A DNA stretch of 64,000 bases, taken from the NCBI GenBank assembly GCA_024641325.1, contig JAHEDJ010000002.1:74365-138364 (forward strand), written 5' to 3'. How positions within the stretch are numbered: position 1 is the stretch's first letter; every line of letters starts with the position of its first letter. Origin of the DNA: a bacterium. GTDB lineage: Bacteria; Actinomycetota; Acidimicrobiia; Spongiisociales; JAHEDJ01. Shown in pieces: positions 48,973 through 58,086 of this stretch. The notes under the pieces are model-generated. The model saw only the letters and a list, made by a program, of their open reading frames with translations, had not been told where the DNA came from and did not search any database. Both the position numbers and the translations under genes were made by a program.

Positions 48973-51543
48973 TCAGCCTGTGCGAAGTTGCCGGACAGTG
49001 TTCGAGTACTCCAGTGGTTCGATCATCCGTCTCGGCGCCATCTCGATGGCCTCGTCGATCGACACGGCGGGAGACAGGTAGAACCCCTGGACGTGTCTGC
49101 ATCCGAGTTCTCTCAGCCTCGTGAGCTGTTCACGGGTCTCGACGCCTTCGACGATCGAGCCCAAGCCCAGAGAGTTACCGATGGTCAAGACGGTGCGAAC
49201 CAGTGAGGTCTCTCCCTTTCCGAGTTTCTCTACGAATGAACGGTCGATCTTCACGATATCCAGCGGCAGCCGATCGAGATAACTCAAGGAGGAGTAACCC
49301 GTTCCGAAGTCATCGATGGCGAGATGGATTCCCAGCGACTTCAACTGCTCCAACTTCTGCACCGCGGTGTGCATGACTACGTTCTCGGTGATTTCAAGAG
49401 TGAGGTGATCGGCCGCGAGGCCGCTATCGGCCAGCGCGTGGCGAACTTCGTCGACGATGTCACGTTCGCTGAGTTGCTTTGGAGAGATGTTGACGGCTAC
49501 ACCGGTCGCAGAGCCCGGGTTTGCGAGCTGCCATTTCCTCGCGTCTGTGCATGCCTTTTCGAGGGCCCACCGGCCGAGGCGAACGATGAGCCCCGATTCC
49601 TCGGCATAGGGTATGAACTCGTTCGGTTGGATGGTTCCCAATGCCGGATGGTTCCATCGCATGAGCGCTTCGAAACGCGTGATGGCTCCAGTGGTGGTAT
49701 CGACGATCGGTTGGTAATGCAGCTCCAGTTGGTTCAACTGGAGGGCAGATTGCAGTGACGTCCGGAGCTCGAGAGTCTTAGTCACCTCGTCATGCATTGC
49801 GTCTTCATACTGCCGATAGGTTCCCTTGCCCTGGTGCTTGGCCGCGTACATCGCCGCGTCTGCGTTGCTGAGTAGCTCTCCCGGACCGTCGTCGGGGGTC
49901 GAGAGGGCAATGCCGATGCTGGCCCGGCTCAGGATCTGGTGGCCATCGATGAGGAATGGAAGTTCCAAGGAGTCGATCATGCGGGAGGCAAGTCCGACAG
50001 GAGCGGTGGTGTCTCGTGTTGAAGGGATCAGGATGGCGAACTCGTCACCTCCGATACGGGCAATTGTGTCGTCGCTGCGACACTCGCCTTGCAGTCGCTC
50101 CGCTACGCCGATGAGTAGCTGGTCACCTGCGGCGTGCCCGAGACCGTCGTTGACGCTCTTGAAATCGTCAAGGTCGAGGAACATGACGGCGGCCGAGGCG
50201 CCTTCCTCGAGGTTGCTCAAGGCGTCATTCACACGGGCGGTGAAATTCGCTCGATTGGCGAGGCCGGTCAAGGAGTCATGGAGTGCCTGGTACTTCAGTT
50301 CTTCTTTCAAGATGGTCAAGCTGGCGAGTGAGTCGACGAGTTTGCCGTTTTCCAGCGAGACGGCGACCTGTCGGGCAAAGGTTTCGAGGAGTTTGATGTC
50401 GCGGGGTTTGTAAGAGCTCACATCGTCGAGCTTGTTCGCCACGAGAAGGATGCCTCCGACCGCCTCATCGACGAAAAGCGGTGTGGCGATGCCTTCCCGG
50501 ATGGACGGGCAGTCGCCCATCCGCGTGAACGCCTCATCGTCCTTGTCGAACAACCTGCTGGCACGGGTCGATGCGATCTCATGCCAGACAGGACGTTCGT
50601 GATCGAGCGGAATCAACTTCATCTGGAGTTCCCCGTCGGCCGGCCCGACTCGGGTCCGGTATGCGGCATTGTGGGAGTCGTCGATGAACAGAGTTATCTC
50701 CGCGAACTCCGCAGCAAACATCGCGCGTGCCCGGTCGGCTGCTACCAGCATCGCTTGTTCGATTTCGGGCGTCTGGTGCAGGACTCTCGTCGCGTCGTAG
50801 AGAGACTCGAGGCGTGTGCGTTGTTCGCGCTGGCTCATATAGGCCCGGTAGGAAAGGAAGAGAATGGCAGGCGGTATCATCGCCAGGAAGGCCATCCCTG
50901 GTGCCAATTGGGTCATGGTGACGGCGATCAACGCCAGACTCGAACTCATCAGTGTGGCAAGTGTGCTCAGCCCGATGACTTCGCTGAGCCCGGGCCTGCG
51001 GAAAGACCCGGAAACCAGGAAGATGGCCAGGTTGACGAGGAACATTGCCGTGGTGAGCGCGGCCAGAGCTGCAATGAGCGCTCCTGCCCATCCCGCAATT
51101 CCCAGCGGCTCCCCGAGCCGCGCGATGCTCCGGAACACCACGATGGCCATCCCGAACACAAGTGTGAATTGAGAGACGTTGAAGAGGAGTTTCAAAAGGG
51201 GTTGGCGGCGGTGGATGCTCAGCACGAGCGTCGAGCCGATCAGGACCGAAAGCATCATGTGAGCCGGAGCGAAGAAGAAGAGGCCGAAGATCAGCGGGAT
51301 TTCGCTCATCGAGAAAGAATGAGCGTCGCGTTTCCCGCGGAAATGGACGACCGTGATCTCGCTCAAATATACGGCCGGGATCAAGACCCACCATGGCACG
51401 CTGGGCGCACCCGGCATGACCGCCCAGTCGGAAACGATCATGGCGATCAGCAGGGCGGCAGCTGCGATGGCGGCCGTGAGGAAGAGAACACGTGTCGATC
51501 CGGACCTACGGGTCGATTTGGTGGGGGCTGGTCGTGTCTTCAT
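48973..51543 (-). CDS. Membrane sensor with GAF, GGDEF and EAL domains (diguanylate cyclase/phosphodiesterase).
   Basis: Has an N-terminal polytopic domain, an intact GGDEF (RIGGDEFAIL) and EAL motifs (EALMRW, DDFGTGYSSLSYL). Confidence 0.9.
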   Translation of the reverse strand: MKTRPAPTKSTRRSGSTRVLFLTAAIAAAALLIAMIVSDWAVMPGAPSVPWWVLIPAVYLSEITVVHFRGKRDAHSFSMSEIPLIFGLFFFAPAHMMLSVLIGSTLVLSIHRRQPLLKLLFNVSQFTLVFGMAIVVFRSIARLGEPLGIAGWAGALIAALAALTTAMFLVNLAIFLVSGSFRRPGLSEVIGLSTLATLMSSSLALIAVTMTQLAPGMAFLAMIPPAILFLSYRAYMSQREQRTRLESLYDATRVLHQTPEIEQAMLVAADRARAMFAAEFAEITLFIDDSHNAAYRTRVGPADGELQMKLIPLDHERPVWHEIASTRASRLFDKDDEAFTRMGDCPSIREGIATPLFVDEAVGGILLVANKLDDVSSYKPRDIKLLETFARQVAVSLENGKLVDSLASLTILKEELKYQALHDSLTGLANRANFTARVNDALSNLEEGASAAVMFLDLDDFKSVNDGLGHAAGDQLLIGVAERLQGECRSDDTIARIGGDEFAILIPSTRDTTAPVGLASRMIDSLELPFLIDGHQILSRASIGIALSTPDDGPGELLSNADAAMYAAKHQGKGTYRQYEDAMHDEVTKTLELRTSLQSALQLNQLELHYQPIVDTTTGAITRFEALMRWNHPALGTIQPNEFIPYAEESGLIVRLGRWALEKACTDARKWQLANPGSATGVAVNISPKQLSERDIVDEVRHALADSGLAADHLTLEITENVVMHTAVQKLEQLKSLGIHLAIDDFGTGYSSLSYLDRLPLDIVKIDRSFVEKLGKGETSLVRTVLTIGNSLGLGSIVEGVETREQLTRLRELGCRHVQGFYLSPAVSIDEAIEMAPRRMIEPLEYSNTVRQLRTG

Positions 51544-51555
51544 GGTGACCGCTTC

Positions 51556-53385
51556 TTATCGATCGAGCCAGAGGTTGCCGGACCAGCTGAGGCCGCTCCA
51601 CGATAGGCCCGACCACGACAAGCCGTTCCACCCGTTGGCCCACTCGCCAGTCGACCAGCTGAGGCCACTCCATGAGAGACCGGACCAACTGAGTCCCGAC
51701 CAGCTGAGGCCGCTCCACGAGAGACCCGACCAACTGAGTCCCGACCAATCGGCTCCGGCCCAGTCATTGCCGTTCCAGCTTCCGCCGGACCAGCTGAGGC
51801 CGCTCCACGAGAGACCCGACCACGACAGGCCGTTCCACTCCATACCGAAGATGTCCTGTTCGCCGGTGAGTTCCACCCCGTCGATAGTGACGTGTGAATC
51901 GCCCCTGGCCAGCTCCAGGGAGCCGGTGCCGGTAGACGGTATCCAACTCTGACTCGCTTTGTTAGTCCTGGGTGTTCTCGTCGACGAGGCCCTCTTGAGG
52001 TTAAGGACACCGCCGCCCTGGCATTCGCTCGACACGCCGCGGATCGAAGAGGATCCCGCCACCAGGAGATTCTTCACCTGATCCGGAGTCAGCTCGGGGC
52101 GTTCCTCGATCAGCAAAGCGACGCCGCCCGACACAACCGCGGCAGCCTGAGATGTTCCGCTGCCGCGGAAGAACCGGAAACCTGCAACGGCCTCGGGATG
52201 TGCCTGATCGATAAACGATCCGTAGTCGCGCAAGCTTACGATTGATCGGCCGGGGGCCACCACATCCGTCGTCCTGTTGCCCGTACCGCAGTTGGAGAAG
52301 CTGGGTATCACATCGTCTCGAGGCGTTGCCGTGCCCATGGGATCGACCGCACCGACCGCAATCACAAAGGGGTCGTAGGCCGGATTGCGGACCGGATAGG
52401 AGTTGCCGTCGTTTCCGGTGGCGGCGATTACGACGATGCCGTGGTTCCAGGCCGCCTCGACCGCGTATGCCAGAGGGTCGATGGTGTAGGACTGATTTCC
52501 AGTTGTACCGAACGAGAGGTTGAGGACCCGGATGTTCAGACCGTTGTCGTTGCGATGCTGGACTACCCAGTCGATGCCTGCGATCACCTGGGAAACATCC
52601 ACGGCACCGTTTGAGGCGGCGACCTTGACGTTGACGATGCGGGCGTCGGGCGCCATGCCGAGGAAGAAGTACTGACCGTCGCTGCCGGTGATCGAGGAGG
52701 GAGCTAACTCGTCACGCCCGGCGATGATGCCGGCCATGTGGGTGCCGTGGCCGTATCCGTCCAGGTATCGCATCGACTCGTTCTGTGAATCGAACGACAG
52801 ATCCGGACCGTTGACGACCTTTGCGGGATTCATCAGCCCGTATACCGGAGCTACTCCAGAGTCGATGATTGCGACATCGATCCCGGCTCCGGTATAACCC
52901 TGATCCCACATCCAAGTCGCCATGGTGATCTCGTTTGTCACTTCATACATCGTTCCGTCGCCGACGGGAGGAGCCTCTGAACTCCAGCCACTGTCGACCG
53001 TCTTGAGTTCTGCACTTGCTTCTCCCGTCAGATATCCGGAGTCGCCGGCCAGGCTGGCCAGGGTTACGGGGTAATCCGGGGTCACGGCGGTAACGTCGGG
53101 GTGCAATCTGACGGTGACGAGTTCATTGGCAGGAATCCGTGCCGCGAATCCATCGAAGATGCCGAACTCGTGGGTGATCGTTCCACCCAGCGTTTCGACG
53201 AGGGCCTGGACGGCACCGTTCGATCCGGCGTCTTCGAGGACGATGACTGAGATTATCTCGGAGGCGGCAGGAGGGGAGGCTGCCGCGGCTGGCGCGACGA
53301 TGAGGCTCAGAACAATCAGGAGAATGGCCATCCTCCGGGATTTGCCACCGTCCCAACTCAATCCGATATGCATCATTCCGTCCAT
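51556..53385 (-). CDS. Secreted S8 (subtilisin-like) serine peptidase with a C-terminal Trp-x4 pentapeptide repeat array.
   Basis: Catalytic triad contexts are DSGV, HGTHMAG and GTSQAAA, with a signal peptide and an AGGAG SD 6 nt before the ATG at 53385. The C-terminal 100 aa is a repeat of the form (WSGLS)n. Confidence 0.85.
   Translation of the reverse strand: MDGMMHIGLSWDGGKSRRMAILLIVLSLIVAPAAAASPPAASEIISVIVLEDAGSNGAVQALVETLGGTITHEFGIFDGFAARIPANELVTVRLHPDVTAVTPDYPVTLASLAGDSGYLTGEASAELKTVDSGWSSEAPPVGDGTMYEVTNEITMATWMWDQGYTGAGIDVAIIDSGVAPVYGLMNPAKVVNGPDLSFDSQNESMRYLDGYGHGTHMAGIIAGRDELAPSSITGSDGQYFFLGMAPDARIVNVKVAASNGAVDVSQVIAGIDWVVQHRNDNGLNIRVLNLSFGTTGNQSYTIDPLAYAVEAAWNHGIVVIAATGNDGNSYPVRNPAYDPFVIAVGAVDPMGTATPRDDVIPSFSNCGTGNRTTDVVAPGRSIVSLRDYGSFIDQAHPEAVAGFRFFRGSGTSQAAAVVSGGVALLIEERPELTPDQVKNLLVAGSSSIRGVSSECQGGGVLNLKRASSTRTPRTNKASQSWIPSTGTGSLELARGDSHVTIDGVELTGEQDIFGMEWNGLSWSGLSWSGLSWSGGSWNGNDWAGADWSGLSWSGLSWSGLSWSGLSWSGLSWSGLSWSTGEWANGWNGLSWSGLSWSGLSWSGNLWLDR
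51570..51850. repeat. About 19 tandem 15-bp coding repeats (consensus ccagctgaggccgct in plus orientation) encoding WSGLS pentapeptides.
   Basis: Direct read of the periodic DNA and protein (W every fifth residue). Confidence 0.85.
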
Positions 53386-53758
53386 TGCGGCTCCTGGTTC
53401 CTGTCTTTGTATGGGAGGTATCGACCAAAGGAACCGAGAACTTGGGAACCGTTTGCCAGACGCTCGAGGTAACTAGTTATTTGCCGTCGCCCGGTTTGGC
53501 GATTTGCGAGTGGTATACCCCATCCGTTTTCGCCGGCAGGCGGAAGCATCCAACCCACTGGAATCATCGCTGCGCCGGGGTGGCGTGGCGCAGAGACCGA
53601 TCCGCTTCGAATTGCGAATCGCGAATCGGGTTTCTCCCCTTCCGATTCCGGTTGCCGGCGACCACCTCGCGCCGAAGGCATTAGGGGAGATGTATCCACG
53701 AGAAAGCCGAACCGGAAGCCCGGTTCGGCTTTCACTGGACAACTCTGTCGGTCTGGGA

Positions 53759-54007
53759 CTACGACCAGGACACTCCTCTCATGGAGTACGAACCCGACGG
53801 ATAGATCGGGTAACCACCGGATCCGGTCGGATAGCCCCAGGCGACGACGGCAGTGTCACCGTCCGCCAGCTCCAGGGAATCTGCGGCCTGAGCGTTCGGC
53901 AAGAAGCTGACCACCAGCAGCACCGCCATGGCGACGGCAACGAGGAGGATGGCGATTCGTTTGGACCTACTGTCGTCCCAGGCGATTCCTAAGTTCGGAC
54001 TTTGCAT
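53759..54007 (-). CDS. Small secreted peptide precursor (83 aa) whose leader is paralogous to that of the subtilase.
   Basis: The start at 54007 has a GGGAGAG SD 5 nt upstream. The N-terminus LGIAWDDSRSKRIAILL parallels the subtilase IGLSWDGGKSRRMAILL, with a predicted cleavage after AQA. The mature roughly 45-aa Gly/Tyr/Pro/Ser-rich peptide ends in SWS. Confidence 0.45.
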   Translation of the reverse strand: MQSPNLGIAWDDSRSKRIAILLVAVAMAVLLVVSFLPNAQAADSLELADGDTAVVAWGYPTGSGGYPIYPSGSYSMRGVSWS

Positions 54008-54141
54008 TTGCTCTCCCAGTCTTCGCTTCTGGACTTCATCGGCGCTCATCTCGGGAACTTGGGGACTGTTTCAAGGACGTTCCGAGTAACTAGTCCTTGT
54101 TGGCGGTAGGGGGCGAGCTGCAACGACGCTACGCTGAACTC

Positions 54142-55206
54142 ATGGCAGCTGAAGAAGAACGTATTGCCCTGTTCCTGGACTACGAGAACCTGGCGATTGG
54201 AGCGCGTGACAACCTCGGGGTCACCTTCGACTTGAAGCCGATTGCCGATGCTCTTGCCGAACGCGGCAGAGTGATCGTGCGGAAGGCTTACGGCGATTGG
54301 TCGATGTTCGACGAGGATCGCCGGATGCTCACCCGGAACCACGTGGAACTGATCGAGATCCCCCAGCGGATGGGTGCCTCACGCAAGAACGCGGCCGATA
54401 TCAAGATGGCCGTTGATGCGCTTGAACTCGCTTTCGAGCGCGACTATCTCACAACATTTGTCATCGGCACGGGTGACAGCGATTTCACACCCCTGGTTCA
54501 CAAACTTCGAGAGTTGAACCGGAAGGTGATAGGGGTCGGCATCAAGGACTCGACGAGTGCGCTGCTGCCCCCCGCCTGCGACGAATTCCTGTTCTATGAA
54601 CGACTCGAGGGGGTGGAGGTGCCCGCCGGCGCGCGGCCGGGAGCCCAGCGGCCCCATCGCCGGACGAGCGATCAGCAGGAAGAGCCGAAAATCGAAGTTG
54701 AGGTCAAGGGCCTCGACGACCTCGACAAGCTGGTCACCCAGACACTCTCTGGCCTCCAGCGCTCCGCTCCGGGCGCCGTCCTTGCCTCCTCCCTCAAGCG
54801 GGCATTGATCCGGAAGGATCCGACCTTCAGTGAGGCCGACTTCGGCTTCCGGGCGTTCGGAGAGCTCCTGAGGCATATGGAGAAGCGGAAGGTTGTCGCA
54901 CTGAGCGAAGGTAGCGCAAAGGGTGATCCAGTCGTAGATTTCCGCTCAGGTGACAGCGGTGAAGATGAGGCATTCTCGCTCTTGCTGTCGGTTGTGGCGG
55001 GTTTGGAGACGGCAGACGGTCCACCTGCTCTATCCGGTCTGAAGAACCAGTTGCGAAAGCAGGATTCGAAGTTCACCGAGAAACGGTATGGATTCGGGGG
55101 ATTCCTGCAGTTCTGCAAGGCGGCGCAAGCCCGGGGCCTCATCGAACTCGAGTGGAACGACGCTGCAGACGACTACCTGGTGAGGGTCGCTCTACCGGAT
55201 CGGTAG
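54142..55206 (+). CDS. NYN-domain ribonuclease-like protein with two C-terminal OST-HTH/LOTUS domains.
   Basis: The NYN motif is IALFLDYENL...RKAYGDW...GTGDSDF, followed by two LOTUS-like modules (LKRALIRKDPTFSEADFGFRAFGELL and LKNQLRKQDSKFTEKRYGFGGFLQFCK). Confidence 0.7.
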   Translation: MAAEEERIALFLDYENLAIGARDNLGVTFDLKPIADALAERGRVIVRKAYGDWSMFDEDRRMLTRNHVELIEIPQRMGASRKNAADIKMAVDALELAFERDYLTTFVIGTGDSDFTPLVHKLRELNRKVIGVGIKDSTSALLPPACDEFLFYERLEGVEVPAGARPGAQRPHRRTSDQQEEPKIEVEVKGLDDLDKLVTQTLSGLQRSAPGAVLASSLKRALIRKDPTFSEADFGFRAFGELLRHMEKRKVVALSEGSAKGDPVVDFRSGDSGEDEAFSLLLSVVAGLETADGPPALSGLKNQLRKQDSKFTEKRYGFGGFLQFCKAAQARGLIELEWNDAADDYLVRVALPDR

Positions 55207-55283
55207 CTGCCGGGGGCCGGACAACCGGCCGCGACCAAGGCGTAGACTGAGGACTCTTCGCCTCGAATCCTCAGGAGGTCATT

Positions 55284-56678
55284 GTGGAACAACGCCGTCG
55301 CAGCTGGGCAGAGCCCTACAAGATCAAGATGGTTGAACCCATCAAGATGACCACCCGAGAGCATCGCGAGAAGGCGATCGCGGAGGCCGGATACAACAGC
55401 TTCCTGCTCCGCTCTGAGGACGTCTATATCGATCTGCTGACAGACTCGGGCACTTCAGCGATGTCCGACTATCAGTGGGCGGGTCTGATGCTCGGCGATG
55501 AGTCGTACGCCGGTTCGAAGAGCTTCTACAACCTGGTCGATGCCGTGCAAGAGGTGTACGGCTATCCCGAGTTGATCCCGACGCACCAGGGCCGTGGTGC
55601 CGAGCACATTCTGAGCCAGCTCATGATCAAGCCGGGCGATTACGTGCCCGGCAACATGTACTTCACGACAACTCGTTTCCACCAGGAGTATGCCGGTGGG
55701 GTATTCGTCGACGTGATCATCGATGAGGCTCATATGCCGTCGGTCGAGCACCCGTTCAAAGGCAACGTCGATCTGGGCAAGCTCCAGAAACTGATCGATG
55801 AAGTGGGCGCCGACAAGATCCCCTACATCTCGGTTGAGACGAACGTCAACATGGCCGGCGGTCAGCCGCTATCCATGGCCAACCTCAAGGCGACCTATGA
55901 ACTGTGCAAAAAGCACGGTATCCCTGTGATGCTCGATGCCACGCGTGCGGTTGAGAACGCCTACTTCATCCAGCAGCGTGAAGGCGGCTATGAGGACAAG
56001 TCCGTCAGAGAGATCATGCTCGAGATCTGTTCCTATTCAGATGGCGCAACCGTGTCGTCCAAAAAGGACAACCTCGTCAACATCGGCGGATTCCTGGCAG
56101 TGCGCGACCCGGAGCTGGCCACGCGGGCCCGTGCCATGCTCGTTCAGTTTGAAGGTCTGCATACCTACGGGGGAATGGCAGGCCGTGATATGGAAGCGCT
56201 TGCCCGCGGTATCCACGAGATGGTTGAAACCGATGATCACGCAAGGGCGCGAGTAGGTCAGGTCGAATACCTCGGGAACTCGCTGCTGAAGGCCGGTATC
56301 CCGATCGTCATGCCTGTCGGTGGCCACGGGATCTTCATGGACGCGGCTGCGATCCTGCCGCACCTTTCGCAGGACCAGTTCCCGGCCCAAGCGTTGACTG
56401 CGGCGCTGTACGTCGACTCGGGTGTACGCGGGATGGAGCGCGGAATTGTTTCCGCCGGGCGGGATCCGAAAACCGGCGACCATCGTTACCCGAAACTCGA
56501 ACTCGTGCGGATGGCCATTCCCCGCCGGGTCTATACACAGGCGCACATGGACGTCACCGCCGAGTCGGTCATCGAGGTCTTTGAGAACCGGGAAAGCGTC
56601 GGCGGTTTGAAGTTCACCTATGAACCGCCGGAACTCCGCTTCTTCCAGGCCCGCTTCGAAGAAGTAGCGAGTCGCTAG
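55284..56678 (+). CDS. Beta-eliminating lyase of the tryptophanase/tyrosine phenol-lyase family; tryptophanase is most likely.
   Basis: Strongly resembles TnaA along its whole length (FLLRSEDVYIDLLTDSGT, IPTHQGRGAEHIL, SKKDNLVNIGGFLA with the PLP-lysine context). Confidence 0.8.
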   Translation: MEQRRRSWAEPYKIKMVEPIKMTTREHREKAIAEAGYNSFLLRSEDVYIDLLTDSGTSAMSDYQWAGLMLGDESYAGSKSFYNLVDAVQEVYGYPELIPTHQGRGAEHILSQLMIKPGDYVPGNMYFTTTRFHQEYAGGVFVDVIIDEAHMPSVEHPFKGNVDLGKLQKLIDEVGADKIPYISVETNVNMAGGQPLSMANLKATYELCKKHGIPVMLDATRAVENAYFIQQREGGYEDKSVREIMLEICSYSDGATVSSKKDNLVNIGGFLAVRDPELATRARAMLVQFEGLHTYGGMAGRDMEALARGIHEMVETDDHARARVGQVEYLGNSLLKAGIPIVMPVGGHGIFMDAAAILPHLSQDQFPAQALTAALYVDSGVRGMERGIVSAGRDPKTGDHRYPKLELVRMAIPRRVYTQAHMDVTAESVIEVFENRESVGGLKFTYEPPELRFFQARFEEVASR

Positions 56679-56726
56679 TCGCGGGTCGCGGGTAAAACTC
56701 GCGACCCGGAACTCGTGACCCGCGAC
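56679..56726. terminator. GC-rich nested stem-loop between the convergent lyase gene and gdhA.
   Basis: GTCGCGGG...CCCGCGAC forms an 8-bp outer stem with an inner stem GGGTCGCG/CGCGACCC. Confidence 0.55.
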
Positions 56727-56730
56727 TCTT

Positions 56731-58086
56731 CTACGGCCAGATGCCTCGTTCCATTAGCGTTTTGACACACCGTCCCACGGCCACGACATAGGCGGCCGTG
56801 CGAATGGTCGGCGCGTCCAGGGGCGATTCATCTGGGTGATCGACGGCCCACTCCGCTCGATAGTGGTCTATCGCATCGACCAGAGCGGCCCTGGAAGTCA
56901 CTACGACGTTGGTCGCTCGATACATCTTCTTCTTGAGCTTCTCCTGAACCTCGTGTTCCTCCCATTGCTGGTTCTGGAGATTCTGTACCCACTCGTAGTA
57001 GCTGACCACGACGCCGCCGGCGTTTGCCAGGATGTCGGGAAGCACGATGATGCCGTTGTCGTGAAGGATGACATCGGCTTCAGGAGTCGTCGGACCGTTG
57101 GCGGCTTCGACCACCAACCTCGCTTGGACCCGACCGGCATTGCTCTCGACAATCTGGTTCTCCATCGCGGCCGGTATCAGGATGTCGCAAGGCACTTCGA
57201 GTACTTCCCTGGGTGCCAGTGCCTTCGTGCTCGGGAAATCCACGACTGATCCTGTTGCATCCTTGTGATCCGCGACCCGTTTCACGTCGAGTCCGCCCGG
57301 CTCGAAGATCCCGCCCTGAGAGTCGCTGACTGCCACGATTCGGGCGCCCGCGTCGTCGTAGAGCCTGGCAGCCCATCGGCCGGCGTTTCCGAAACCCTGG
57401 ATGGCGACATCAGCCCCCTTGAGCGAGGTCAAGCCGGGGAGGCCGCCCAGCTCGAGGAAGTGCTCGGTCACATACAGACTGCCCATGGCGGTGGCGCTAT
57501 CGCGCCCGAGCGATCCTCCGAGGTCCACCGGCTTACCTGTGACCACCGGAAAGCAGTTCTCGCCGGGATGCATCATCGAATAGGTATCGAATACCCATGC
57601 CATCGTTTGCTGGTCCGTATATAGGTCCGGGGCCGGTATATCCGTATGAGGTCCTATGTTGTCGCCCAGAGCAGAGATGTACCTGCGCGTGACCCGGGCT
57701 TTCTCACCCTCCGAAAGCAGGCGGGCATCGCAGGCGACTCCACCCTTTGCCCCGCCAAACGGCACATCGACCAGGGCGCACTTCCACGTCATCCACGCCG
57801 CCAGGGCACGGACTTCTTCTTCGTTGACCGTCGGATGAAACCGGAAGCCTCCCTTGCCGGGACCGCGGGCGTTTGAGTGCAAAACGCGATACCCACGGAA
57901 CATCTCGACACATCCGTCATCCATGCGCACCGGTAGGGATACCCTGACTACCTGTTCGGGTTCGAACAGCCACTCGCGCATGCCCGTGCATTCCTTGAAC
58001 TGATCGAGGAATGGAACAGCCTGGTTGAACTGGTGGTTGGCTACACGGAGCGGATTCAGCTCTCCTTCGGTGATCACCGCAGTCAT
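56731..58086 (-). CDS. gdhA: Glutamate dehydrogenase (Glu/Leu/Phe/Val dehydrogenase family).
   Basis: Has KGGFRFHP, the catalytic-Lys motif FGGAKGGV and a Rossmann GFGNAG at 451 aa. Confidence 0.8.
   Translation of the reverse strand: MTAVITEGELNPLRVANHQFNQAVPFLDQFKECTGMREWLFEPEQVVRVSLPVRMDDGCVEMFRGYRVLHSNARGPGKGGFRFHPTVNEEEVRALAAWMTWKCALVDVPFGGAKGGVACDARLLSEGEKARVTRRYISALGDNIGPHTDIPAPDLYTDQQTMAWVFDTYSMMHPGENCFPVVTGKPVDLGGSLGRDSATAMGSLYVTEHFLELGGLPGLTSLKGADVAIQGFGNAGRWAARLYDDAGARIVAVSDSQGGIFEPGGLDVKRVADHKDATGSVVDFPSTKALAPREVLEVPCDILIPAAMENQIVESNAGRVQARLVVEAANGPTTPEADVILHDNGIIVLPDILANAGGVVVSYYEWVQNLQNQQWEEHEVQEKLKKKMYRATNVVVTSRAALVDAIDHYRAEWAVDHPDESPLDAPTIRTAAYVVAVGRCVKTLMERGIWP

Follow-up and report, generated by a model that had tools for sequence, protein, structure and literature searches.

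A tryptophan-pentapeptide tail on a family of S8 subtilases and its membrane GAF-GGDEF-EAL neighbour

The protease gene and its C-terminal tail

We analysed a 64,000-nt stretch of contig JAHEDJ010000002.1 (assembly GCA_024641325.1, positions 74,365 to 138,364; hereafter the window, to which all coordinates refer) from a bacterium of the class Acidimicrobiia in the phylum Actinomycetota. On its minus strand, the open reading frame (ORF) at 51556-53385 encodes a protein of 609 amino acids (aa) in which an S8 subtilase is followed by a C-terminal array of five-residue units, each beginning with Trp, and the gene directly downstream encodes a membrane protein with GAF, GGDEF and EAL domains (the partner). 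Comparison with related proteins and loci shows that the ORF encodes a real exported subtilase with no sign of decay, and that the Trp-pentapeptide tail is a hallmark of a very large S8 family in Actinomycetota and neighbouring phyla, most members of which are encoded next to a homologue of the partner. The features of the protease gene are given below with the source of each call in brackets (AF2, AlphaFold2; pLDDT, predicted local distance difference test score).

51556..53385, minus strand: complete gene for an exported S8 subtilase of 609 aa with a Trp-pentapeptide tail (ORF, Pfam, 100% identical database protein P0001)
53275..53385, minus strand: export signal, about residues 1-37 (read from the sequence; AF2 helix at residues 14-33)
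53059..53259, minus strand: Inhibitor-I9 prodomain, residues 43-109 (Pfam PF05922 at residues 68-109; AF2 fold at residues 43-105)
52051..52890, minus strand: S8 catalytic domain, Pfam span residues 166-445 (Pfam, alignment, AF2)
51838..51951, minus strand: conserved linker, residues 479-516, with the motif G.GSLE.ARG..H...DG..L.GEQDIFG (alignment; AF2 pLDDT >90 in the full-length model)
51751..51837, minus strand: first five W units, residues 517-545, with the landmark SWSGG.WNG (alignment; AF2 pLDDT 80-94 in the full-length model)
51559..51750, minus strand: homogeneous W-x4 array, residues 546-609 (repeat scan, selection data, AF2)

Two Pfam domains precede the tail, namely Inhibitor_I9 (PF05922) over residues 68-109 and Peptidase_S8 (PF00082) over residues 166-445 (E 1.8e-40; 139.5 bits against a gathering cutoff of 21.8), which bears out the order of prodomain, catalytic domain and Trp-x4 tail (residues 517-609) proposed in an earlier note on this DNA. 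The catalytic residues D174, H212 and S411 and the oxyanion residue N324 are invariant in a 99-sequence alignment of the family, in which residues G485, G487, R493, G494, D510 and I511 of the linker and W531, G533, G534, W536, N537 and G538 of the first W units are invariant or near-invariant. The full-length AF2 model has a mean pLDDT of 82.9, with values above 90 for the prodomain and the catalytic domain; the prodomain is confident over residues 43-105 and is followed by a low-confidence linker (residues 106-132). Foldseek assigned the S8 domain to the subtilisin alpha/beta fold (3afg, 9ues and classical subtilisins, E down to 3e-27), with Tk-SP (3afg) and 9ues as the closest solved structures. 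Among the NCBIfam models, the best match to this domain was the mycosin model TIGR03921, which scored below its cutoff (147.9 bits against 278.75) over profile positions 6-297 of 353.

The signal region comprises an extended n-region in which G-L-S-W-D and S-R-R occur, then a hydrophobic helix and the sequence A-A-A|S, at which the signal peptide is predicted to be cleaved. In the window protein the n-region motif reads IGLSWDGGKSRR (residues 1-18; 53331-53385, minus strand), and the stretch S-R-R-M-A-I-L resembles a twin-arginine motif. About one third of family members carry G[VIL]SW[DN] in the cytoplasmic n-region of the signal peptide, ahead of basic residues, and this sequence resembles a single unit of the C-terminal repeat.

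The tail occupies the last 93 residues of the protein (517-609) and comprises 19 units, each with Trp in first position. In order, these are WNGLS, two WSGLS, WSGGS, WNGND, WAGAD, six WSGLS, WSTGE, the four-residue unit WANG, WNGLS, two WSGLS, WSGNL and a terminal WLDR. Almost all units are therefore as listed in the earlier note, the exception being a first block given there as three WSGLS, which is two followed by WSGGS. The array can be divided into 13 contiguous W-x4 units (14 Trp spaced by five residues), one four-residue unit, and four further units with five Trp. About 20 Trp residues at an exact five-residue spacing cannot be a product of chance, and a six-frame scan of the 64-kb window found no second W-x4 array. 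The unit is best written in the register x-S-W-S-G, with Trp in the central position and x denoting the fourth residue of the Trp-first unit.

Distribution, age and constraint of the tail

A genome scan using one genome per species recovered at least 567 related loci, the best 80 of which (L001-L080) form the basis of the locus counts reported here. For the protein-level comparison we used the 120 best database homologues, which share 47-79% identity and derive mostly from Acidimicrobiia and Actinomycetota metagenome-assembled genomes (MAGs). All 120 homologues carry the tail, with 6-29 units (median 17), as do nearly all of the best 80 loci, so that the array is not the rarity suggested by its previous description as very unusual. 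One relative, P0006, has 30 WSGVS units. Cultured carriers among these loci belong to Geodermatophilus, Blastococcus, Actinoplanes, Paractinoplanes, Planosporangium and Motilibacter, and the MAGs include some labelled Thermoleophilia, Chloroflexia, Dormiibacterota and Limnocylindrales. At L002, L007, L042, L070 and L078, two or three S8 paralogues are arranged in tandem.

Across the 120 homologues, units have Trp in position 1 in 100% of cases, Ser in position 2 in 78%, Gly in position 3 in 85% and Ser in position 5 in 74% (Ser or Thr in 84%). The fourth residue, x, is mostly the same throughout a protein, whereas between proteins and lineages it may be any of A, T, V, L, M, K, Q, R or N. Landmark units keep their position family-wide, with SWSGG.WNG following the third or fourth unit and S.N.WNG found in mid-array. 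When the array alone was used as a query, 13 of the 20 long matches were S8 proteases bearing different W-x4 units (including WDGIS, WTGNS, WTGID, WNALR and WNGAA), and the bacterial W-x4 arrays recovered by this search were overwhelmingly located on S8 proteases. Neither Pfam nor NCBIfam holds a model for the Trp-pentapeptide tail, no solved structure in the Protein Data Bank (PDB) covers it, and literature searches on the tail motif and on Trp-rich subtilase repeats found no description. As a fixed module of a protease family, the Trp-centred tail thus far appears undescribed and unmodelled.

A phmmer search with the 95-aa array against 1.84 billion representative sequences returned 5152 matches, a number that does not indicate the size of the family since the top of the list is swamped by translated eukaryotic satellite and microsatellite DNA. 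Many of the tail matches among P0129-P0270 are translations of simple DNA repeats (WNGME, WCGVV, WTGLD and WSGVE); WNGME corresponds to (GGAAT)n satellite DNA, and collections of predicted proteins are rich in such spurious W-x4 sequences. Among the other carriers, P0121 (1154 aa) is a eukaryotic-type adhesion G protein-coupled receptor (GPS motif and 7tm_2) with about 90 extracellular W-x4 units (WNGQV, WNGLV), and P0164, P0241, P0166, P0192 and P0187 are bacterial cadherin-like proteins and predicted lipoproteins with arrays of [VI]DW[NS]G or WNG[LA][AG]. The unit [VI]DW[NS]G agrees with the pentapeptide-repeat consensus at all positions but the central W, and escapes detection by the Pfam pentapeptide models.

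The DNA of the array had been described in the earlier note as 15-bp near-identical repeats, from which recent, still ongoing expansion and strain-to-strain length variation had been deduced. Neither the description nor the deduction is upheld by the data. Tandem Repeats Finder detected matches of only 66-70% at period 15, and 94% over 2.1 copies at a 45-bp (three-unit) period at 51652-51747. The ten WSGLS units occur in six DNA versions, which use TCG, TCC, TCA, AGC or AGT for Ser and differ from one another at synonymous sites, including switches between TCN and AGY serine codons. Mean pairwise DNA identity among the ten units is 0.70, and the mean for adjacent units is 0.57.

We compared this DNA with that of two independently assembled orthologues, P0272 (L082) and P0002 (L081; 76% identical as a protein). 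In each of them the order of the 19 units is that of the window array, the TCN/AGY serine pattern matches at each position, and unit DNA identity is 0.84 and 0.875 between orthologous units as against 0.65 and 0.70 between non-orthologous units. Codon differences in the tail that are synonymous only outnumber those that change an amino acid by 26 to 6 and 30 to 10, respectively, which corresponds to synonymous fractions of 0.81 and 0.75, compared to 0.73 and 0.69 in the catalytic domain and 0.35 and 0.33 in the prodomain. The same array is found in P0001, P0272, P0271, P0002 and P0003 (the last off by one residue), which come from independent NCBI, ENA and JGI assemblies, so that it withstands the independent-assembly check suggested earlier. 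Since adjacent units are divergent, the codon pattern is shared with orthologues position by position and the tail is constrained, these comparisons argue for an array that is old, stable and non-expanding. By the same comparisons, it predates the split of the lineages and is length-stable, and purifying selection on the tail is no weaker than that on the catalytic domain.

The 45-bp, three-unit codon super-period of the window is kept among the orthologues. In K/R-type arrays (such as those of P0042, P0108, L071 and L072), acidic or irregular units recur regularly, at intervals of three or four units, as in WSGKS WSGKS WSDxx. Together, the spacing of the K/R arrays and the conserved codon super-period suggest a higher-order period of 15 residues.

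The partner gene and the surrounding region

The partner gene and its domains are located as follows.

51544..51555, minus strand: intergenic gap of 12 nt between the S8 stop codon and the partner ATG (ORF coordinates, terminator scan)
48973..51543, minus strand: partner gene, 856 aa, membrane-GAF-GGDEF-EAL (Pfam)
50779-51543, minus strand: polytopic membrane domain of the partner, residues 1-255, with about seven hydrophobic segments (weak MASE9 match)
50350-50763, minus strand: partner GAF domain (Pfam)
49825-50286, minus strand: partner GGDEF domain (Pfam)
49069-49761, minus strand: partner EAL domain (Pfam)

The partner starts 12 nt past the S8 stop codon, and the gap at related loci is mostly 3-60 nt. 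Promoter and terminator scans at the window locus gave chance-level matches only, with no terminator in the 12-nt gap. Based on the short gap, the shared strand and the lack of a terminator, the S8 and partner genes are probably co-transcribed, and their tight coupling suggests that the two proteins are co-produced stoichiometrically. ORF clustering across the best 80 loci identified the partner as the only conserved neighbour. A tblastn search with its membrane domain alone detected this domain in 61 of the 80 loci, where it lies directly downstream on the same strand in 59 and is divergently oriented in 2; about 10 of the 19 loci without a match have no downstream sequence. A reciprocal scan of metagenomes, based on an alignment of the membrane domain from 8 close sequences, yielded 64 loci with enough upstream sequence, 43 of which have a W-x4 array just upstream of the partner. 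Literature searches (GGDEF/EAL with subtilisin in Actinobacteria; MASE9) did not find the gene pair described.

The GGDEF motif is intact in all 40 partner orthologues examined and the EAL motif in 39 of them, and the partner is apparently a membrane-bound bifunctional enzyme that both makes and breaks cyclic di-GMP (c-di-GMP). Its membrane domain gives a weak MASE9 (PF20972) match that covers part of the profile (positions 80-180 of 203) and stays below the cutoff, at 19.6 bits against 24.3 (E 9e-4). MASE9 as described (10.1101/2021.11.05.467447) shares short loops and intramembrane polar residues with the partner domain, and the passages on MASE9 consulted there mention no association with a protease.

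Upstream of the protease gene, on the same strand, lies one further ORF with a likeness to it.

53759..54049, minus strand: possible small secreted protein, 96 aa (tblastn N-terminal likeness to the S8 protein)

This ORF is separated from the S8 gene by 373 nt (53386-53758). The N-terminal sequences of its product (LGIAWDDSRSKRIAILLVAV...) and of the protease are alike (tblastn, 40% identity across 25 aa, E 1e-4), the product ends in ...MRGVSWS, and the motif CCCAAGTTC[CT]CG is found ahead of both start codons. No homologue was detected by tblastn in L001-L080, and the product has no match in Pfam or NCBIfam. The ORF may represent a partial duplicate of the 5' end of the S8 gene or a small co-regulated secreted protein, and its membership of the module is uncertain. 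An Rfam scan of the 373-nt region, which would cover elements such as a c-di-GMP riboswitch, returned nothing meaningful. Further upstream (54097-58086), genes for an NYN-domain protein, a beta-eliminating lyase and a Glu/Leu/Phe/Val dehydrogenase are syntenic in L081 (the P0002 contig) and are not conserved across the wider family.

Structure and proposed role of the tail

Set against the consensus published for pentapeptide repeats, [S,T,A,V][D,N][L,F][S,T,R][G] (PMC8145042), the unit x-S-W-S-G is compatible in four positions out of five, and W takes the place of the central L/F. With respect to the features by which this repeat family is recognised, the array exceeds eight contiguous five-residue repeats (13), and departs from the central L/F in having W in 100% of units. 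When the sequences of the entire PDB were searched with a tail profile, 8 weak matches were obtained, almost exclusively to pentapeptide-repeat proteins, including AhQnr (3pss, E 0.002), QnrB1 (E 0.007-0.009), the designed repeat 4yfo and the thylakoid protein 3n90; only the Qnr and QnrB1 matches came near significance. In these alignments the tail W is in register with the central L/F, and solved Qnr structures themselves have Trp at a few central positions. Profile and consensus data thus provide weak but consistent support for the pentapeptide-repeat analogy drawn in the earlier note, which holds at the level of sequence. Among distant W-x4 relatives compared with the Pfam pentapeptide models, P0124 scored below the cutoff and P0206 scored above it (23.7 bits against 20.2 for PF00805), with no single stretch passing. 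Pfam matches of the tail to Lamprin were below the cutoff and were rejected as low-complexity noise.

Known pentapeptide-repeat proteins (PF00805; MfpA, Qnr, Rfr), which form a quadrilateral, right-handed beta-helix, resemble the tail in their long uninterrupted tandem runs of five-residue units. However, their central residue is L or F, whereas Trp is found in every unit of the tail, and most of those characterised are DNA mimics of the cytoplasm or proteins of the thylakoid lumen, unlike the tail, which is extracytoplasmic and fused to a protease.

The AF2 check proposed previously gave a divided result. The first five units (residues 517-545) are modelled with pLDDT 80-94 in the full-length protein as opposed to <55 when the tail is modelled alone; because this confidence depends on the presence of the catalytic domain, these units and the linker probably form a docked subdomain rather than a generic repeat. 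For the homogeneous part of the array, residues 554-608 fall below pLDDT 50, a result that, by the standard set in the earlier note, formally counts against a Trp-stacked solenoid in this part.

We tentatively favour a role in which the tail tethers the protease at the membrane or couples it to the membrane domain of the partner, and we hold this reading with less than even confidence. Once the protein has been exported and its I9 prodomain removed, no other anchor would remain on the mature enzyme. The first five W units would pack onto the catalytic domain, and the remaining tail would form a pentapeptide-repeat-like or semi-ordered Trp-rich module that retains the protease at the membrane or cell surface. 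The tail would couple the protease physically to the co-translated membrane c-di-GMP enzyme, next to its membrane domain, and extracytoplasmic proteolysis and c-di-GMP turnover would thereby be linked. We favour this role since the tail is the sole candidate for retention of the enzyme, mycosins have an anchor at the equivalent position, Trp prefers membrane interfaces, and the two genes are coupled. As the loops of the partner are short, any contact between tail and partner would have to be made at or within the membrane.

Several points weigh against such a role. The adjacency of the S8 and partner genes could reflect co-regulation instead of physical contact, and binding of the tail to the membrane or to the partner is inferred. 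In the reciprocal scan, 21 of the 64 partner-family loci have no upstream S8 gene, including L084 and L085, whose membrane domain is 77% identical to that of the window partner; the pairing, though strong and found across several phyla, is therefore not obligate. All extracytoplasmic loops of the partner are short. No match to the protein was obtained with the Pfam pentapeptide models (PF00805, PF13599 and PF13576), even at E values up to 1. The full-length AF2 model has no confident fold for residues 554-608 (pLDDT 22-42), and for the tail alone, modelled from an alignment of 24 tail sequences, the mean pLDDT was 38 and the model was unusable. Finally, x is K, R, Q or N in about a quarter of the family, a position that would face inward in the canonical pentapeptide fold.

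Mycosins, the best-scoring named S8 subfamily, are associated with type VII secretion systems (T7SS) and are anchored through a C-terminal transmembrane helix. Both they and the present family are exported; mycosins work at the membrane together with a membrane complex, and the present family may likewise act there with a membrane partner. However, the window protease has no C-terminal hydrophobic helix and instead has the W array ending in WLDR, which would substitute for the transmembrane anchor of mycosins, and no ESX/T7SS genes are present among the nine neighbouring genes examined (GGDEF-EAL, NYN, WS/DGAT, lyase, GDH and others). Tk-SP and other extended subtilases (with beta-jelly-roll, PPC or P-domains) share an S8 core with a C-terminal accessory module; the tail differs from these modules in being a short-period repeat array with no detectable relation to jelly-roll, PPC or P-domains.

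A parallel for the gene arrangement is LapG/LapD, a periplasmic protease and the membrane GGDEF-EAL receptor for c-di-GMP that controls it. There, too, an extracytoplasmic protease and a membrane GGDEF-EAL protein are encoded by adjacent genes, suggesting that extracellular proteolysis and intracellular c-di-GMP are connected. However, LapG is a transglutaminase-like cysteine protease and the window protease is an S8 subtilase, and LapD has degenerate GGDEF and EAL domains, a HAMP domain and a periplasmic output domain, whereas the partner has intact motifs, GAF in place of HAMP and no periplasmic output domain. The LapD model matched the partner at 179 bits, well below its cutoff of 1020, so that the logic of the two systems is comparable without the systems being homologous. 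LapD and LapG have been described in Gram-negative bacteria, whereas the present family is found mostly in Actinomycetota and related phyla.

Alternatively, the tail may be a rigid Trp-ladder beta-solenoid, that is, a Trp-centred pentapeptide helix, which binds cell-wall polymers or polysaccharides polyvalently and independently of the c-di-GMP neighbour. We consider this possible, though rather unlikely, and it would be compatible with a tether. The agreement at four of five consensus positions, the PDB profile matches to pentapeptide-repeat proteins (E 0.002-0.009) and the tolerance of central W in solved Qnr structures all favour a solenoid, as does the presence of [VI]DW[NS]G arrays in other secreted bacterial proteins (lipoproteins, cadherin-like). 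The K/R arrays, in which an acidic unit is regularly spaced and often is every third unit (WSGKS WSGKS WSGDA), provide a hint that units are adjacent in space. Aromatic-rich solenoids such as choline-binding repeats are known to bind wall polymers. However, AF2 usually folds pentapeptide-repeat proteins with confidence, which contrasts with its scores for the array in either model, and even a permissive Pfam search found no pentapeptide match. A bulky or charged x is also ill-suited to the inward i-2 position beside Trp at i, and the array is confined almost entirely to a single S8 subfamily rather than being a mobile module found on diverse enzymes.

A tail that merely serves as a flexible spacer or low-complexity extension, rich in Ser and Gly, mostly disordered, without specific binding and upheld mainly by repeat dynamics, is very unlikely in our view. 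While the low AF2 confidence and the range of about 6 to 30 units across the family are in line with a spacer, Trp is among the residues least compatible with disorder and is invariant at every fifth position in hundreds of sequences. The tail is under purifying selection equal to that on the catalytic domain, its units remain orthologous position by position at a protein divergence of about 24%, and the landmark units are conserved, all of which argue against a passive linker.

It is more improbable still that the tail is a multi-copy precursor of a pentapeptide signal, in which the protease would trim its own tail to free about 15-20 identical peptides that carry lineage specificity in x and are sensed by the membrane domain of the partner. 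The mostly uniform x within a protein, its variation from lineage to lineage, and the tight linkage of the tail to a protease and a membrane sensor gene would fit such a scheme, and analogies exist in the subtilisin-type processing of Phr in Bacillus and in multi-core precursors cut by subtilisin-like or kexin-like proteases. However, a structural role is suggested by the position-conserved irregular units and by the first five units, whose model is confident in the full-length protein and not in the tail alone. There are no spacers or recognition sites between units, and one third of partner genes occur without the protease. Were the tail a P1 substrate of its own enzyme, x should covary with columns of the catalytic domain; no column gave a signal pointing clearly to the S1 pocket, and the positions with the highest mutual information are ordinary variable surface positions without a charge-complementary pattern.

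The notion that the array arose in assembly, or is a hypervariable repeat of microsatellite type that expanded recently, is refuted by the same 19-unit array in independent NCBI, ENA and JGI assemblies, the DNA diversity of the units (adjacent identity 0.57) and a frame that is intact to the conserved C-terminal WLDR/K, even though repeats of this kind can trouble assemblers or be masked and runs of N are present in the tails of L006 and L033. At these two loci the N runs, translated as X, lie within the W-repeat region of the S8 gene and are attributable to masking or assembly breakage.

Going beyond a tether, the tail and the MASE-like membrane domain could constitute an unrecognised transmembrane signalling pair, widespread in Actinomycetota, Chloroflexota and Dormibacterota, that is a functional analogue of LapD/LapG and connects extracellular proteolysis with c-di-GMP inside the cell, with the array serving as a physical coupler at the membrane interface or as a self-processed multi-copy pentapeptide signal and the tail representing a new class of Trp-centred repeat. 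We regard this extended proposal as doubtful at present; if it is true, it would mean that a class of tails has been missed by current structure predictors.

Subtilases and pentapeptide repeats are both well known, and the window gene is an ordinary member of a large family. What appears to be undescribed in the literature searched, and unmodelled, is the Trp-centred tail on this subtilase family together with its conserved partnership with a membrane GAF-GGDEF-EAL protein. If a Trp-only pentapeptide solenoid exists, it would represent a new fold variant on which structure predictors could usefully be tested. Hundreds of genomes carry members of the family, among them those of the cultivable and genetically tractable Actinoplanes, Geodermatophilus and Blastococcus, and the gene pairing offers a handle on the signals perceived by orphan membrane sensor domains and on the wiring between c-di-GMP and the cell surface in Actinomycetota.

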